A program made the position numbers and the translations under genes. A DNA stretch of 64,000 nucleotides from Escherichia phage LF82-1: the sequence record PV648359. One strand, 5' to 3'. The notes beneath the pieces are model-generated. The model saw only the letters and a program-made list of their open reading frames with translations. It ran no database searches and was not told the DNA's origin. Positions 33,510 through 37,851 of the stretch are shown piece after piece (positions within the stretch are counted from its first letter, which is position 1; every line of letters begins with the position of its first letter).

Positions 33510-33749
33510 TTATTTGAATTTCTTGGCAATGTTGATATAACGTAAAGCTTCAGAATCTATACTTCCAAGAACACTATGAAGGAATGCATCAGTGTAGTAT
33601 TCCAATTGAACAGGTTCTTTAATCACTTTAGCCGCTTTGGTTTCAAACAGGCCCATAAGGGCCTTTTTAAGAATTTGTTCGTTAGTGTTCAGTTTTATAG
33701 TCAAAATCTCTTCATTAAGTTGGTGGTTAAAAGTTTTTCTAGAAATCAT
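33510..33749 (-). CDS. hypothetical protein
   Basis: 79 aa ORF between gene 42 and the Cys-rich ORF. Confidence 0.4.
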   Translation of the reverse strand: MISRKTFNHQLNEEILTIKLNTNEQILKKALMGLFETKAAKVIKEPVQLEYYTDAFLHSVLGSIDSEALRYINIAKKFK

Positions 33750-34906
33750 TCCGGGTACCTCAAAGCGTCATCAGAGTTAGTTATATCAATAATAGATATA
33801 GAGTTTTCTGATAACCCATTTTTAGATAACTGACGTTTATAATATCTTTCACAATATGTACACGTCGTCCCGCAGATTTCATTAGCACAATCGAAATCTG
33901 GATGTCTGAACCACCTTTTTTCTAAAAAACCGTCTAACAATGAGGTTTCAATATTTACTGTATGTGAAAACTCAGTCTCATTTTCAAGAGTGAAAATAGT
34001 CTCTAAAGGCTTCCACAGTTCTAACAAATTACCTTCAAACTTTTCAGAAGCGTATGCTTCAAGAACTTTCAAAATGTAGTCTGTGCTACCTGTACGTCCT
34101 GAAACTTTGAATTGAGTGATACCAATATCATTATAAAGTTTCAAATCTTGAGGACGAACAAAACGAGTTCTCAACCAGTTAAATGGGTCTGTATCACGAG
34201 CTTTAATGCAGTGTTGCATTGGATATCCATTTAAGGATTTAGCATCATCAGCTGTAACATCAGTACTATGGAAAATATAGCAAGAGTCACGATAACTACA
34301 ATGTGTTGTATACCCTTTACCAGCATTAGAACAGAACTCATTTACAAGAACTTCAAATATTATATTGTTCTTATTGCAAAACTCTGCTGCACGCTTCAGG
34401 AAAGAAACTGAACGGTTCTTATGAATTCCACAGCAGACCTTTTTGATATTGTATTGGTCATGTAAGTATTTTATTTGAGTTACAGCATCGACATGTAGAA
34501 TTGTTGAAACTTCAATCTCAATGTCTTTATTGACTTCACGAACAATTTCCATAACAACAGGGTTAGCGATAGTAATACGCCATACGCCTATTGACCAAAG
34601 ATACTGAACATAATCCTGAATAGCTTTCTTCTTCCACTCGACTAGTTCTCTTTTTGAACCAGGATTTATCGTGTTGAGTGTATAGTTAAAGCAAATACCT
34701 AATTCGTTACAACGTTTAACGTAATCTTCTAACATCTTTTTGTCAACGTCAGGAAGCCTAAAATCAGGTCTGGCTGCTACAAAAGCCATTTCTCTTGTAG
34801 AGCCATATACTTCGTTTATCAAGCTATTAGGATAGGTTTTATTGAGCTCTACGATTTTATCAAGAAGAGCTAAATCAAAATTCGTTCCGATTTTAAAAGT
34901 ATTCAT
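33746..34906 (-). CDS. Cys-rich protein of unknown function within sugar-nucleotide cluster
   Basis: 386 aa; C-terminal CANEICGTTCTYCE cluster and internal CSYRDSC suggest metal/Fe-S binding; no radical-SAM CxxxCxxC. Confidence 0.5.
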   Translation of the reverse strand: MNTFKIGTNFDLALLDKIVELNKTYPNSLINEVYGSTREMAFVAARPDFRLPDVDKKMLEDYVKRCNELGICFNYTLNTINPGSKRELVEWKKKAIQDYVQYLWSIGVWRITIANPVVMEIVREVNKDIEIEVSTILHVDAVTQIKYLHDQYNIKKVCCGIHKNRSVSFLKRAAEFCNKNNIIFEVLVNEFCSNAGKGYTTHCSYRDSCYIFHSTDVTADDAKSLNGYPMQHCIKARDTDPFNWLRTRFVRPQDLKLYNDIGITQFKVSGRTGSTDYILKVLEAYASEKFEGNLLELWKPLETIFTLENETEFSHTVNIETSLLDGFLEKRWFRHPDFDCANEICGTTCTYCERYYKRQLSKNGLSENSISIIDITNSDDALRYPE

Positions 34907-34962
34907 TTTTTTGCATCTCGCGTTAATTGATGCGATGGTTTTTGCAGGTCTTACTTAAATTA

Positions 34963-35364
34963 TTATAGATTTGGTTTATATGATTTAAATGTTTCGAATT
35001 CGCCTTTATTCATAAGAGCTTTGAATTCGTCAGGACGCATAGCTTTGTCGTCGATAATCCAATCATATACTGGTTTATGTGTTAGCAAATTATGGTACTT
35101 CAAACCAATGTTTTCCAAGTTCTGAATCAGACTTGGGAGAATGTCAATTGCTATACGACCAGGACCTACCGACTTCATACCACGGGCAGTGTAAAGCGTT
35201 ATGGTATGCCCTGCATCATACAGAGCATTAATGGCAGACACCATTTCGACGTCTGGTTTGAAGTTCACGTAATCACGATTGTTATTCCACTCTGTTATAC
35301 AATCATCGACATCAAAACAAAGATTAAGCATGTTTTCTACACGGTGCATTAGATTCGTTCCCAT
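34963..35364 (-). CDS. HAD-superfamily phosphatase-like protein
   Basis: 133 aa; HAD motif I FDVDDCIT, motif II TLYTARG, Lys and acidic DD motif near C-terminus. Confidence 0.5.
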   Translation of the reverse strand: MGTNLMHRVENMLNLCFDVDDCITEWNNNRDYVNFKPDVEMVSAINALYDAGHTITLYTARGMKSVGPGRIAIDILPSLIQNLENIGLKYHNLLTHKPVYDWIIDDKAMRPDEFKALMNKGEFETFKSYKPNL

Positions 35365-37034
35365 TGATGAGTGATATCGCCACCGATTGGACGATAAGAA
35401 ACACCAGTTTCTTTATCAGTTAGTACCCATTTACCAGGATTTTTTGTAATCAGAGTAGCCGTTACAGGTTCTGCTACGTCATAACTAATAGAGCCGTCTT
35501 GAAGTACACGGCCCATGTTACGTAATTGCTTAGTCAGAAGTTCCATACCTTTATAATATGCGGCTACCGCTTTAAGTGGATTATTCTTGAAATAACCACC
35601 TAATGCAATCCAGATAATTGCCACCGCCAAATGATGATACTCGTTAAACGAACTCATCTTTCCATATTTGTAAATTAATGGATTGATGTTAATAGTCACA
35701 TTACAAGTTGTTTCATCAATAGTAAACTGTCCCCAGGTCGGATTAGCATTGAATTCATCATAACCTGAAACAGCATAAAGCACTTTAGCTTCATCATACA
35801 ATTTTGGCCCGTAAATCTTGGTTTCGCCAAAATATCCACGAGGGTCGATAAACTTGACTTCGCCGTTATCAGTAATCATAGTATTACTGAAGTTCGGGTC
35901 ACCATGAATAACAGAGTACTGTCCCTGAGAACGATTATGATAACGAATAAGGTGTTCTAAAGCTTGTTTCAGCATTGGCTTCAGACGTCCAATCTTAGTG
36001 TAGTTCACATGTGTGATTTTACCAAATGAATCAATCAATGGTTGAATACTTTCACAACGATCAATAACTTTCGTATAGAATTCTTTAGTGAAATCACGAC
36101 GAACAGTTTCAGGACTTACAAAATACGTGTCTGTGCTGAATTTCAGTGCATCTAAAATTGCATCAACAATTTGTGGACGAGCAAGACTTGATTTGGATTT
36201 AATATATTCAAATGCCGGCTTACCTTTAATGCGTTCCATTTCAAAGTTATTTTCATTAACAGAAACTAACTGAGGAACTGAATCTGATTTCACTTTCAAA
36301 TACCACGAAATCTCATCTTTCTGAAGAGCTCGTCCCTGTTCGGTTAATGCGAATTTAGTTACAGTTTCTTCACCAATTTCAACTGCATTAAAACTACGAT
36401 TAAGTTCACGAACTTCATGAGCTTTTTCAAGTTTAGGCATATCACCTAAATCAATTAGATTCATAAGCTCTGATTTATTGAATGCGCCGCTGTAAAGGAA
36501 TTCTACGAAATCACGTCCTTTGCAGTATTCATGAATTTCCTCATCGGTAGAACCCATATAGAATTCCCAGTCTTTGAACTGATAAATTCCTACAACATTA
36601 CCACCTGTTGAACCTACGTTAGTGATATTTTCACCGTCGAAATTATACCGACATTCGTCACCCTTAACATAGATTGCGTTAACATTCCAAGACCATGAAC
36701 CAAAATCAGGAATAATATCACACCAGTTAACAATTACATTATGGCCATCTAAATCTTTGTGTAATTTAGCAAGAGCATAAGCAGAACCATACGCTTCATC
36801 AACTGTACGAATAGTCACATTGAACCCTTCTTGCTCACAATAAGCTCGAACAGTTTCAGCAAATTTTGAATGAACTACTACAATAATTTCATCTGCGCCA
36901 AGGTCAGAATAAATTGTATACAAATTGCTCAGAATAGTGTCTTGTTTATAGTTAACAAGCACCTTAGGAATATGATGCGTTATTGGATACAAACGAGTTG
37001 CCAGTCCAGCACCAAGAATAACAGCTTTTTTCAT
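35349..37034 (-). CDS. bifunctional sugar-1-phosphate nucleotidyltransferase / APH-fold anomeric sugar kinase
   Basis: 561 aa; N-terminal MKKAVILGAGLATRLYPIT (G.G.R nucleotidyltransferase signature); C-terminal HGDPNFSN..FIDPRG (Brenner HGD..N and DxD-type kinase motifs). Confidence 0.7.
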   Translation of the reverse strand: MKKAVILGAGLATRLYPITHHIPKVLVNYKQDTILSNLYTIYSDLGADEIIVVVHSKFAETVRAYCEQEGFNVTIRTVDEAYGSAYALAKLHKDLDGHNVIVNWCDIIPDFGSWSWNVNAIYVKGDECRYNFDGENITNVGSTGGNVVGIYQFKDWEFYMGSTDEEIHEYCKGRDFVEFLYSGAFNKSELMNLIDLGDMPKLEKAHEVRELNRSFNAVEIGEETVTKFALTEQGRALQKDEISWYLKVKSDSVPQLVSVNENNFEMERIKGKPAFEYIKSKSSLARPQIVDAILDALKFSTDTYFVSPETVRRDFTKEFYTKVIDRCESIQPLIDSFGKITHVNYTKIGRLKPMLKQALEHLIRYHNRSQGQYSVIHGDPNFSNTMITDNGEVKFIDPRGYFGETKIYGPKLYDEAKVLYAVSGYDEFNANPTWGQFTIDETTCNVTININPLIYKYGKMSSFNEYHHLAVAIIWIALGGYFKNNPLKAVAAYYKGMELLTKQLRNMGRVLQDGSISYDVAEPVTATLITKNPGKWVLTDKETGVSYRPIGGDITHQWERI

Positions 37035-37215
37035 GTTGTGGTCCTCATTGGTAAGTAGGAGTATTGTACACTATTCTAGTTAAAGCATCCATACTTTGCT
37101 TGTAGTCCAATCATAATCCATCCGATTATAAGAGTCGGAATCATTACTGGAGCCGTTAAGCTCCAGTAGATAGTCATGACAAGCATCAATAGTAAAAGTC
37201 CTATTGTTATTGCTT

Positions 37216-37851
37216 TCATTGCTCGCCTCGTAACATGGCACCTAGTGCACCGCCTGGATGGAACTTAAGGAAATCATTAGAGGTAAATCCACGTTCAGAC
37301 GAAAGGTTGATAGCAAAAGTATCGATAAGCGCTAACAATAATGTAGTGGACATGGTCGGAGCCAGAGAATTCTCATCAACCTCTACTGCGATGCCTGTAC
37401 AGAAAGAGTAATCAAAAAGGGCTTCATTTTCTTGTGGAATGTCTGGGTTACAATGCAACAGAATCTGTTTGACGTTCGGTCGAATCATTTTAAGATGCTT
37501 AGCCACGCCTATCATTTCTTCAGTTTTACCAGAACGACTAATATGAATCAACACATCATTAGGCGCAATAAATCCTGCATCACCGTGAGAATAATGCCCA
37601 GTGTTCAAGTACATACTTGGGATACCGAGTGAAGCAAATGTCTCAGAAGCTTTAGTTGCAATATTAGCATTCTTACCAACACCTGTAATAATTACTCGGC
37701 TTTCATAATTACTAAGTCCAGGGCGTCGAAGAGTTTCTAGAATAGCATTATAACGAGCAGGGTTTTGACTAATTACTTTGGCCATAGCGGCCAAAGAAGA
37801 AGCTTGTTTTATGATTGCGTCAATAGCGATATTAATAGGAGTAGTTTTCAT
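37216..37851 (-). CDS. SIS-domain sugar phosphate isomerase, KpsF/GutQ-like arabinose-5-phosphate isomerase without CBS domains
   Basis: 211 aa; ITGVGKNANIATKASETFASLGIPS..HGD and APTMSTT..FHPGGALG align with recalled KpsF core motifs. Confidence 0.75.
   Translation of the reverse strand: MKTTPINIAIDAIIKQASSLAAMAKVISQNPARYNAILETLRRPGLSNYESRVIITGVGKNANIATKASETFASLGIPSMYLNTGHYSHGDAGFIAPNDVLIHISRSGKTEEMIGVAKHLKMIRPNVKQILLHCNPDIPQENEALFDYSFCTGIAVEVDENSLAPTMSTTLLLALIDTFAINLSSERGFTSNDFLKFHPGGALGAMLRGEQ

Follow-up and report, generated by a model that had tools for sequence, protein, structure and literature searches.

Gene content of the locus

We analysed a 64,000-nucleotide stretch of DNA from Escherichia phage LF82-1 (PV648359; hereafter the window, numbered from its first letter), in which a cluster of genes for sugar-nucleotide synthesis and base modification includes a Cys-rich gene of the Peptidase U32 family. 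The window derives from a Mosigvirus and coincides exactly with positions 64001-128000 of record PV648360. Over the 4.5-kb region under study it shows 100% identity to Escherichia phage LF82-2 and its siblings and 97.8% to RB69.

A preliminary description had singled out four open reading frames (ORFs) directly beside gene 42 as what looked like a complete route from a pentose phosphate to an NDP-sugar. All four were found on the minus strand where it had placed them, encoding 211, 561, 133 and 386 amino acids (aa). They are predicted to specify a SIS D-arabinose-5-phosphate isomerase (37216..37851, 211 aa; ortholog of RB69 gp55), an AfhE-type bifunctional kinase and nucleotidyltransferase (35349..37034, 561 aa), an AfhF-type HAD phosphatase (34963..35349, 128 aa with the start discussed below) and a Cys-rich, putatively Fe-S protein of the Peptidase U32 family (33746..34906, 386 aa; ortholog of RB69 gp50). 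A 47-aa hydrophobic micro-ORF (37076..37219, minus strand) had been overlooked. The module also reaches downstream to 31302, taking in three more minus-strand genes: a thymidylate-synthase-fold hydroxylase (32751..33467, the 'gene 42' of that description), DNA arabinosyltransferase 1 (31852..32751) and a P-loop thymidylate-kinase-like nucleotide kinase (31302..31850). DNA arabinosyltransferase 2 lies away from the main cluster (10559..11659, minus strand). Nor does U32 adjoin the thymidylate-synthase homolog, since a 79-aa minus-strand orphan restricted to Mosigvirus, ORF79 (33510..33749), separates them, in the slot that holds a chorismate mutase in other genera.

The proteins of the cluster share 96-100% identity with those of phage HY126 and 98-100% with those of RB69, and gene order is the same in all three. 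The HY126 Afh cluster and RB69 gp45-gp55 plus gp3 have the same predicted product, mono- and di-arabinosyl-5-hydroxycytosine; ORF79 is full length in the window and truncated in HY126. The G+C content of the module (34-41%) equals that of its flanks, so that base composition gives no hint of a recent insertion. Recent horizontal insertion was considered and rejected, as there is no compositional signal and the module is syntenic across at least ten genera.

Judged by homology, the region almost certainly holds the central genes with which Mosigvirus (RB69-like) phages hypermodify their DNA to arabinosyl-5-hydroxycytosine. Arabinosyl-5-hydroxydeoxycytidine has been demonstrated in the DNA of RB69, NP and HY126-type phages and is predicted for the phage of the window. 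This sugar-nucleotide module is already known from work published between 2018 and 2026.

A dCMP 5-hydroxylase homolog and the acceptor base

The product of 32751..33467 had been taken for a deoxycytidine monophosphate (dCMP) hydroxymethylase. It is identical at 234 of 238 residues to the crystallised protein of PDB entry 9IQC, which matches the HY126 protein at 238/238, and 99.2% identical to RB69 gp48. Around the catalytic C163 it carries N186, D194 and E160 (D169N, N177D and L143E in E. coli ThyA numbering). D169N, together with N177D and L143E, is the published signature of dCMP 5-hydroxylases (Lee 2026). In E. coli, RB69 gp48 yields 5-hydroxydeoxycytidine (5hodC) with oxygen derived from 18O2, and it carries flavin mononucleotide (FMN; Lee 2026). 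RB69 DNA contains mono- and di-arabosyl-5-hydroxycytosine, in which an ether bond joins the sugar to C5, as established by nuclear magnetic resonance and mass spectrometry (Lee 2026). The Durham collection paper described the same chemistry in Mosigvirus NP and called the 2018 assignment of arabinosyl-5-hydroxymethylcytosine (arabinosyl-hmC) erroneous.

We conclude that 'gene 42' is, on its close likeness to these enzymes and its D169N signature, a flavin- and O2-dependent dCMP 5-hydroxylase (5-hydroxy-dCMP synthase) and not a dCMP hydroxymethylase. Because the 'gene 42' homolog hydroxylates dCMP, the acceptor is predicted to be 5-hydroxycytosine. The earlier claim that the phage makes an activated sugar to decorate 5-hmC therefore survives for the sugar and fails for the base, and the RB69 precedent of arabinosyl-hmC has itself been corrected. 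Replacing hmC by 5-hydroxycytosine is the useful outcome for the module.

Arabinosyltransferase 1 (299 aa; PHROG 3891) is 98% identical to both RB69 fragments, gp46 and gp47, and 98.7% identical to its HY126 counterpart; it had no Pfam match. Arabinosyltransferase 2 matches RB69 ORF003c (gp3) at 363/366 residues. The transferase role of gp3/ORF003c was proposed by Thomas 2018 and Lee 2026; the latter assigns a GT-B fold to gp46:47 and proposes gp46:47 and gp3 as the DNA arabinosyltransferases. The kinase at 31302..31850 corresponds to RB69 gp45, whose kinase fold was assigned in Lee 2026; it matches PHROG 761 (thymidylate kinase, E 6e-45) and, weakly, a dTMP-kinase model. A dCTPase of the gene 56 type (23345..23866, minus strand; RB69 gp28 in Lee 2026) gave a Pfam dUTPase_2 match (E 1e-6) and is annotated as a nucleoside triphosphate pyrophosphohydrolase. 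The window also encodes a DenB-like endonuclease IV.

No T4-type glucosyltransferase is annotated within the 64-kb window, in agreement with the preliminary description: the kinase and arabinosyltransferase 1 occupy the T4 beta-gt position, and nothing but small ORFs lies between genes 47 and 55, where T4 has alpha-gt. The T4 hmC system relies on gene 42, alpha-gt, beta-gt and host UDP-glucose. Both systems occupy the same genomic slot and combine a dCTPase with modification of dCMP by an enzyme of thymidylate synthase fold ahead of replication and glycosylation of the DNA afterwards. The phage of the window would differ in adding a hydroxyl rather than a hydroxymethyl group, in using flavin and O2 rather than methylene-tetrahydrofolate, and in its transferases. 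In T4, the dCTPase depletes dCTP and DenB endonuclease IV cleaves cytosine-containing DNA. If these roles hold here, unmodified cytosine should be costly.

The sugar-nucleotide genes

Profile searches of each ORF agreed with the family calls made earlier (SIS, nucleotidyltransferase plus APH, HAD), the APH matches being weak. The isomerase gave Pfam SIS (E 9e-11) and the NCBIfam models KpsF/GutQ (E 2e-32) and KdsD (E 7e-31), and is 99.5% and 98.6% identical to its RB69 and HY126 counterparts. Against the KdsD/GutQ equivalog it aligned over the SIS part only (profile positions 47-202 of 328), with 107.6 bits against a cut-off of 505. Its SIS catalytic domain is homologous to that of KdsD, GutQ and KpsF, and it is assigned the same reaction as these enzymes. 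It lacks their CBS domain pair, having 211 aa where they have 321-328 aa, and bears a resemblance to 3ETN, a single-domain isomerase that Lee 2026 cites. We conclude that it is a single-domain variant predicted to act like the KdsD/GutQ family.

The AfhE-type protein is 96.4% identical to its HY126 counterpart. Its N-terminus matches Pfam NTP_transferase (residues 3-99, E 8.5e-10), and residues 308-409 give weak APH, fructosamine-kinase and EcKL matches. The corresponding motifs are G8AGLATRL (nucleotidyltransferase G-x-G-x-x-x-R-L), H377GDPNFSN (kinase HGDxxxxN) and I396DPRG. The phosphatase, 99.2% identical to that of HY126, has the DxD motif D13-V-D15 and matches the HAD 'capsule biosynthesis phosphatase' model TIGR01689 (E 1.9e-13) and PDB 9IQW (E 4e-87). 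Its start is probably 35349 (128 aa) and not 35364 (133 aa), as in the identical record PV648360 and as suggested by the 9IQW match, which covers query residues 5-133.

These assignments fit the published pathway (Lee 2026, NAR), which cites He 2026 (Nat Chem Biol, on HY126) and Mahler 2025 (Cell Host Microbe) and orders the steps as isomerase, kinase, phosphatase and uridylyltransferase. First, gp55, whose function was assigned by fold, turns ribulose-5-phosphate into arabinose-5-phosphate; second, the kinase domain of AfhE (RB69 gp52:53) yields arabinose-1,5-bisphosphate; third, the Mg-dependent HAD phosphatase AfhF (gp51) takes off the 5-phosphate; and fourth, the AfhE nucleotidyltransferase domain forms UDP-arabinofuranose from arabinose-1-phosphate (Lee 2026). 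The AfhE and AfhF activities were demonstrated with the HY126 proteins by He 2026, as summarised in Lee 2026. UDP-arabinose is not a host metabolite (Lee 2026), and the phage therefore makes its own sugar nucleotide. The expected route from a pentose phosphate to an activated pentose for phage cytosines is thus made up of components shown or assigned in the literature. The prediction was nevertheless not new, as Thomas 2018 had found arabinose on RB69 DNA and proposed ORF055c and ORF53_52c for UDP-arabinose synthesis.

Two genes are split in the RB69 reference (L001, NC_004928), at 2452..3352 (046c/047c) and 5949..7635 (052c/053c), and both splits have been attributed to sequencing errors. The counterparts in the window, of 299 and 561 aa, are intact (31852..32751 and 35349..37034) and therefore provide independent support for the published corrections.

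The 47-aa micro-ORF, annotated in PV648360 and belonging to PHROG 3610 (unknown function), lies inside the module and overlaps the isomerase stop codon. It is 41-60% identical across five other genera, with invariant P-x-M-I-P-T, W, Q-x-K and C-F. Its homolog in phage LC53 is annotated as a transmembrane segment, and it is kept even in one phage without U32. Pathway descriptions in the accessible papers do not mention it.

Phage JS98 (L016), a Dhakavirus, has a minimal cluster of bifunctional enzyme, phosphatase, kinase, hydroxylase and transferase, without SIS isomerase, U32 or chorismate mutase. Dhakavirus phages presumably rely on host KdsD/GutQ for arabinose-5-phosphate, and the JS98-type cluster is a natural control for the accessory genes.

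The Cys-rich protein belongs to a separate U32 subfamily

As the preliminary description had recognised, the sugar pathway does not explain the Cys-rich ORF at 33746..34906. The protein matched Pfam Peptidase_U32 (PF01136) with E 7e-11, above the curated gathering score, and has the U32 TIM-barrel fold. Among named equivalog families in NCBIfam its only match was UbiU, at 18.5 bits against a cut-off of 440, and it shares 16-22% identity with E. coli RlhA, TrhP, UbiU and UbiV. Searching the PDB by sequence gave no match, and among the fold matches, 5D88 and otherwise generic TIM barrels, there was no solved U32 hydroxylase whose active site could be compared. By these comparisons the protein is placed in a separate subfamily of U32.

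The functionally characterised E. coli U32 members are all O2-independent hydroxylases or hydroxylation factors. RlhA forms 5-hydroxycytidine in 23S rRNA (ho5C2501) and needs Fe-S biogenesis and prephenate. TrhP forms 5-hydroxyuridine in tRNA (ho5U34) in a prephenate-dependent, anaerobic reaction that parallels the O2-dependent TrhO. UbiU and UbiV, which act in ubiquinone synthesis with prephenate as oxygen donor, each bind one 4Fe-4S cluster through four Cys, the UbiU ligands being C169, C176, C193 and C232.

The phage protein shares with these enzymes the U32 domain, the TIM barrel and the Cys cluster region. In an alignment at 16-22% identity, the first, third and fourth Cys of the canonical motif correspond to C192, C203 and C209. 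Its GYPMQHC233IKAR resembles the GYPTLC232KGR of UbiU, in which C232 is a proven cluster ligand. Ten Cys are invariant in a set of 38 homologs reaching down to 46% identity: C192, C203, C209 and C233, the four of a C-terminal CX4CX3CX2C, and two more. The phage protein differs from RlhA, TrhP, UbiU and UbiV in missing the second canonical Cys and in having the C-terminal motif and the two further invariant Cys. Unlike RlhA and TrhP it has no C-terminal (RNA-binding) extension, and unlike all the E. coli U32 enzymes it is phage-encoded and set in deoxynucleotide and DNA-glycosylation clusters. Its link to prephenate is gene neighbourhood. RlhA carries out the same chemistry, at the same base position, that we suggest for the phage protein.

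No other protein of the region is as well conserved as U32 when the window is compared with the two most distant phages, a Shewanella phage (79%) and LC53 (83%). For the Shewanella phage, the corresponding identities are 68% for UvsX and the helicase and 54% for the AfhE-type enzyme.

Published treatment of this protein is sparse. The table of Lee 2026 lists gp50 as a 'sugar or heterocycle reductase' without discussion in the text, and the same paper discusses the RlhA and TrhP/TrhO pathways unconnected to gp50. Thomas 2018 does not mention ORF050c, and neither the Thanatos paper nor a phage transposon-mutagenesis preprint has data on the U32 gene. Nothing relevant that tied U32 or chorismate mutase to these phages was found in the accessible literature.

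U32 and chorismate mutase behave as a cassette in related phages

We found the U32 gene in 221 phage records; the phages infect Enterobacterales and Shewanella, and identity was never below 80%. Ten phages carry a gene of the chorismate mutase family CM_2, called above the Pfam gathering threshold, between U32 and the hydroxylase: LC53, Entb_45, Thanatos-2, PhiKpNIH-6, PM2, PSTRCR_127, TG1, phiP4-3, PEi26 and EcS1. In six of them chorismate mutase directly follows U32 and overlaps its stop codon. In PM2, PSTRCR_127, TG1 and phiP4-3, one or two small ORFs intervene and the two genes lie within about 0.4 kb. Residues at six positions are invariant in all ten proteins; we take these to be the catalytic R11, R28, K39, E52, S84 and Q88 in E. 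coli chorismate mutase numbering. The product of chorismate mutase is prephenate.

Phage chorismate mutases of the CM_2 type occurred in 51 records, in genera that also carry U32, and the counts of U32 and chorismate mutase agreed for phages of Enterobacter (4/4), Edwardsiella (3/3), Yersinia (6/6) and Serratia (7/7). Within Kanagawavirus, Entb_45 has both genes between phosphatase and hydroxylase; Q7622 has neither, and there the flanking genes abut. We conclude that U32 and chorismate mutase behave as a cassette, present or absent together. The junction between phosphatase and U32 is also occupied by a SegC-like homing endonuclease in LC53 (L002, 5352..5990) and PEi26 (L024, 1852..2490), and such insertions show how readily it changes.

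In Mosigvirus the chorismate mutase slot holds ORF79, which keeps a 4-nucleotide overlap with the U32 stop codon. The idea that ORF79 is a diverged chorismate mutase was rejected: it had no Pfam match at E up to 10, scored 0.9 bits against a phage chorismate mutase profile, below many shuffled controls, and gave an hhalign probability of 0.2%. Its relatives were confined to Mosigvirus, none with a domain, and 11 of 32 clusters had a truncated version (40 aa in HY126). ORF79 is the least conserved gene of the cluster (92%) and evolves faster than all its neighbours. It is probably decaying, and may be a decaying replacement or remnant in the chorismate mutase slot.

Distant U32 homologs lie among DNA-modification and prephenate-supply genes

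A large set of U32 homologs of about 360 aa, 46-58% identical to the phage protein, was present in metagenomes and viral contigs. Neighbours in metagenomic contigs included dCMP deaminase, thymidylate-kinase-like proteins, uracil-DNA glycosylase (UDG) fused to or beside Pol III alpha, MazG/dUTPase, deoxynucleoside kinase (dNK), NT5C and nucleoside deoxyribosyltransferase. One contig (L027) carries homologs of arabinosyltransferase 1, the SIS isomerase and the AfhE-type enzyme, then U32, then 3-deoxy-D-arabino-heptulosonate-7-phosphate (DAHP) synthase. In another (L028), U32 lies between a glycosyltransferase (GT) like arabinosyltransferase 1 (Aat1-like) and a TAGT-family GT, with dUTPase/DCD and UDP-galactopyranose mutase close by.

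We scored neighbourhoods within 10 kb at 26 distant IMG/VR loci (44-55% identity). An AfhE-like gene was present at 14, a chorismate mutase profile match at 10, and a SIS isomerase and an Aat1-like GT at 8 each; the ThyA-like hydroxylase was found within this distance at 0/26. When 132 neighbouring genes from 19 representative loci were classified by Pfam, CM_2 (6) and DAHP_synth_1 (5) ranked among the commonest families; RimK/glutathione-synthetase-type ATP-grasp genes were just as common (6/132). We also considered that the DAHP_synth_1 neighbours might be synthases of 3-deoxy-D-manno-octulosonate (Kdo) 8-phosphate, which use arabinose-5-phosphate, and rejected this. DAHP synthase models gave 1e-38 to 1e-70 and KDO8PS gave 1e-12 to 1e-17, a preference of more than 20 orders of magnitude for DAHP synthase, and four such neighbours (L053-L055, L064) are DAHP-synthase-chorismate-mutase fusions with the mutase at the C-terminus. 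Since such fusions adjoin U32 in IMG/VR contigs, shikimate-pathway auxiliary genes occur in viruses. Unrelated phage lineages, with three architectures, thus keep genes for prephenate supply and DNA glycosylation close to this U32 subfamily, and where such genes surround it in the IMG/VR loci the O2-dependent hydroxylase is absent nearby.

Three contigs of up to 466 kb (L008, L011, L026) hold a block of radical SAM/SPASM protein, a protein of about 400 aa, thymidylate-kinase-like protein, UDG/Pol III alpha and U32, with dCMP deaminase preceding U32 in the large-phage-like block of L008 and L026. The block suggests an uncharacterised pyrimidine modification, possibly 5-hydroxypyrimidine, in big phages. 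On an 86-kb contig (L009/L010), U32 lies amid NT5C, a nicotinamide mononucleotide transporter, deoxynucleoside kinase, nucleoside deoxyribosyltransferase and radical SAM/SPASM genes, with a second U32 paralog that is 22% identical. This looks like a nucleoside-salvage or modification island in an apparently cellular genome, whose host is probably an anaerobic Firmicute because the contig carries a dockerin-bearing GH43 gene.

Host distribution and oxygen

The ThyA-like hydroxylase occurred in 373 phage records, including 57 of Acinetobacter and 20 of Rhizobium phages, and neither host was among the ten most frequent names of the U32 matches, of which the tenth had 3 records. In Acinetobacter phage fHyAci03 and Pseudomonas phage PspYZU05 the phosphatase is followed directly by the hydroxylase, with no U32; the gene table of DLP3 has the same arrangement (Lee 2026). 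That U32 was not found in phages of the aerobes Acinetobacter, Pseudomonas and Rhizobium fits an enzyme needed only where O2 can be absent. A strict rule that phages of facultative anaerobes always have U32 was rejected, as JS98-like phages and Q7622 are without it.

The window also encodes the anaerobic ribonucleotide reductase NrdD (52682..54499; Pfam NRDD, E 1.5e-171) and its activase NrdG (52215..52685; Fer4_12, E 1e-48), both on the minus strand. The phage is therefore equipped for anaerobic replication, yet its known hydroxylase needs O2. The only known phage route to 5-hydroxycytosine depends on O2, yet the hosts of these phages are gut bacteria and the phages bring an anaerobic ribonucleotide reductase with them.

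A proposed pathway with two hydroxylases

In the pathway we propose, the dCTPase would supply dCMP and remove dCTP, and the thymidylate-synthase-fold flavoenzyme would hydroxylate dCMP at C5 with O2. Kinases would then take 5-hydroxy-dCMP to the triphosphate, which the polymerase would insert in place of cytosine. These steps, like those from arabinose-5-phosphate to UDP-arabinofuranose, have been shown in near-identical phages. The SIS isomerase, as assigned by fold and homology, would convert ribulose-5-phosphate to arabinose-5-phosphate, the AfhE kinase domain would add a phosphate at C1, the HAD phosphatase would remove the 5-phosphate, and the nucleotidyltransferase domain would form UDP-arabinofuranose. 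Two GT-B transferases, likewise assigned by fold or homology, would add one and then a second arabinose to the 5-hydroxyl in DNA. The U32 protein, a putative Fe-S hydroxylase, would take its oxygen atom from prephenate and not from O2. It would thereby give a second, O2-independent source of 5-hydroxypyrimidine, most likely 5-hydroxy-dCMP, during anaerobic growth of the host.

RB69-like gut phages would use U32 as an anaerobic counterpart of the O2-dependent hydroxylase. Many other phages, among them some with contigs of 150-470 kb, would have no hydroxylase but U32, whose product would pass to DNA glycosyltransferases of the Aat1 and TAGT types, and phages with their own chorismate mutase and DAHP synthase would raise the supply of prephenate. 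Hosts pair an O2-dependent with a U32 enzyme for the same product in TrhO/TrhP and UbiI/H/F with UbiU/V; in the window the two genes lie about 280 bp apart. Redundancy has been shown experimentally for the host pairs, whereas that of the phage pair is suggested by genomics.

Taken as a whole, this explanation is in our judgement very probable. For its newer part alone, that U32 is an O2-independent, prephenate-dependent hydroxylase opening an anaerobic route to 5-hydroxypyrimidine, arguments from sequence and gene neighbourhood leave the balance even. We give the same even chance to its general form, a virus-borne Fe-S subfamily of U32 that hydroxylates a pyrimidine deoxynucleotide, or DNA, at C5 with prephenate as donor. 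We found this explanation of the U32 gene in no accessible paper, and whether it is right is close to a coin toss. If true, a prephenate-dependent U32 hydroxylase would close the anaerobic gap and would represent the first hydroxylase of a DNA building block to work without O2. The presence of shikimate-pathway genes in phages would be accounted for, and many uncultivated large phages would become candidates for hydroxypyrimidine-based DNA hypermodification.

Several observations weigh against the hydroxylase interpretation. The canonical CX6CX15CX3/4C is not intact in the phage protein, Tyr199 taking the place of the second Cys, and the candidate ligands C192, C203, C209 and C233 are inferred from an alignment at 16-22% identity. 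The substrate could be dCMP, another nucleotide or DNA. Mosigvirus has no recognisable chorismate mutase, so the enzyme of the window would depend on prephenate made by the host, like the U32 enzymes of the host itself. Klebsiella phage Clarke_MM3 (L018) has U32 (89% identical) and no ORF between it and the hydroxylase, as does L030; because Clarke_MM3-type phages and Mosigvirus keep U32 alone, chorismate mutase has been lost at least twice while U32 stayed. In E. coli, the ThyA-like enzyme and a deoxynucleoside monophosphate kinase suffice for aerobic 5hodC (Lee 2026), and U32 is therefore not required in air. Nor is it indispensable, since JS98 and related coliphages and Q7622, all phages of facultative anaerobes, are without it, and the argument from its absence in phages of aerobes is statistically weak, being drawn from about three phage clades. 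Among the distant viral loci there are several near-duplicates, which lowers the number of independent cases. The steps described as shown are transferred from orthologs 96-100% identical, and this phage is known from its genes alone. Finally, He 2026 or Mahler 2025 may give the U32 gene another role, or already report a hydroxylase.

Other explanations of U32 and of the module

Of the other functions for U32, the best survivor is the one printed in Table 1 of Lee 2026, a 'sugar or heterocycle reductase' or some other redox enzyme acting on sugar or base. We consider it unlikely. The U32 TIM barrel does resemble methylenetetrahydrofolate reductase (rank 2 in the fold search), and Shewanella phage Thanatos is reported to have a deoxypentose, which would need reduction. 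RB69, however, has U32 and carries plain arabinose, and the label was given without argument and leaves the recurrent chorismate mutase and DAHP synthase neighbours unaccounted for. A further point concerns the family itself: we know of no U32 member that is a reductase.

It is also unlikely that U32 is a TrhP- or RlhA-like tRNA or rRNA hydroxylase that tunes translation and lies in the cluster incidentally. T4-like phages encode tRNAs, and the characterised U32 enzymes directed at nucleic acids do act on RNA. The phage protein, though, is without the C-terminal extensions of RlhA and TrhP. In the phage database U32 is found only in genera whose phages carry a 5-hydroxycytosine-type hydroxylase, and in unrelated lineages it recurs near AfhE-like, SIS and Aat1-like genes, or near dCMP deaminase, thymidylate-kinase-like, dNK and NT5C genes.

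A collagenase-like peptidase that processes a phage or host protein is very improbable. Many records are annotated 'peptidase' or 'collagenase-like protease', and PHROG 5757 is named 'peptidase', but this name is inherited from the family, whose characterised E. coli members are hydroxylases or hydroxylation factors. The ten invariant Cys suggest metal clusters, and the neighbourhood is one of nucleotide and sugar metabolism.

For the module itself, a T4-like scheme in which gene 42 makes 5-hydroxymethyl-dCMP and the module supplies a pentose for hmC is hardly credible. Thomas 2018 did report arabinosyl-hmC for RB69, and the enzyme, which is of thymidylate synthase fold, has N177D and L143E in common with the hydroxymethylase of T4. 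That scheme has already been refuted for RB69, the 2018 assignment being explicitly called erroneous: the sugar is ether-linked to 5-hydroxycytosine in RB69 and NP, and the FMN-bearing gp48, to which the window protein is 99% identical and whose D169N signature it shares, makes 5hodC with oxygen from 18O2. Synthesis of a cell-surface sugar by a Kdo or capsule pathway, as the family names KpsF and 'capsule biosynthesis phosphatase' might suggest, can be practically dismissed, since arabinose is found on the DNA of RB69, NP and HY126-type phages and the cluster of the window has DNA glycosyltransferases and a base hydroxylase but no Kdo-8-phosphate synthase.

Apart from these genes, the window carries at 57352..63532 (minus strand) four hypothetical ORFs of about 316-331 aa, followed by one annotated as 'nucleotidyltransferase', according to the annotation of PV648360 (L014, 8352..14532).

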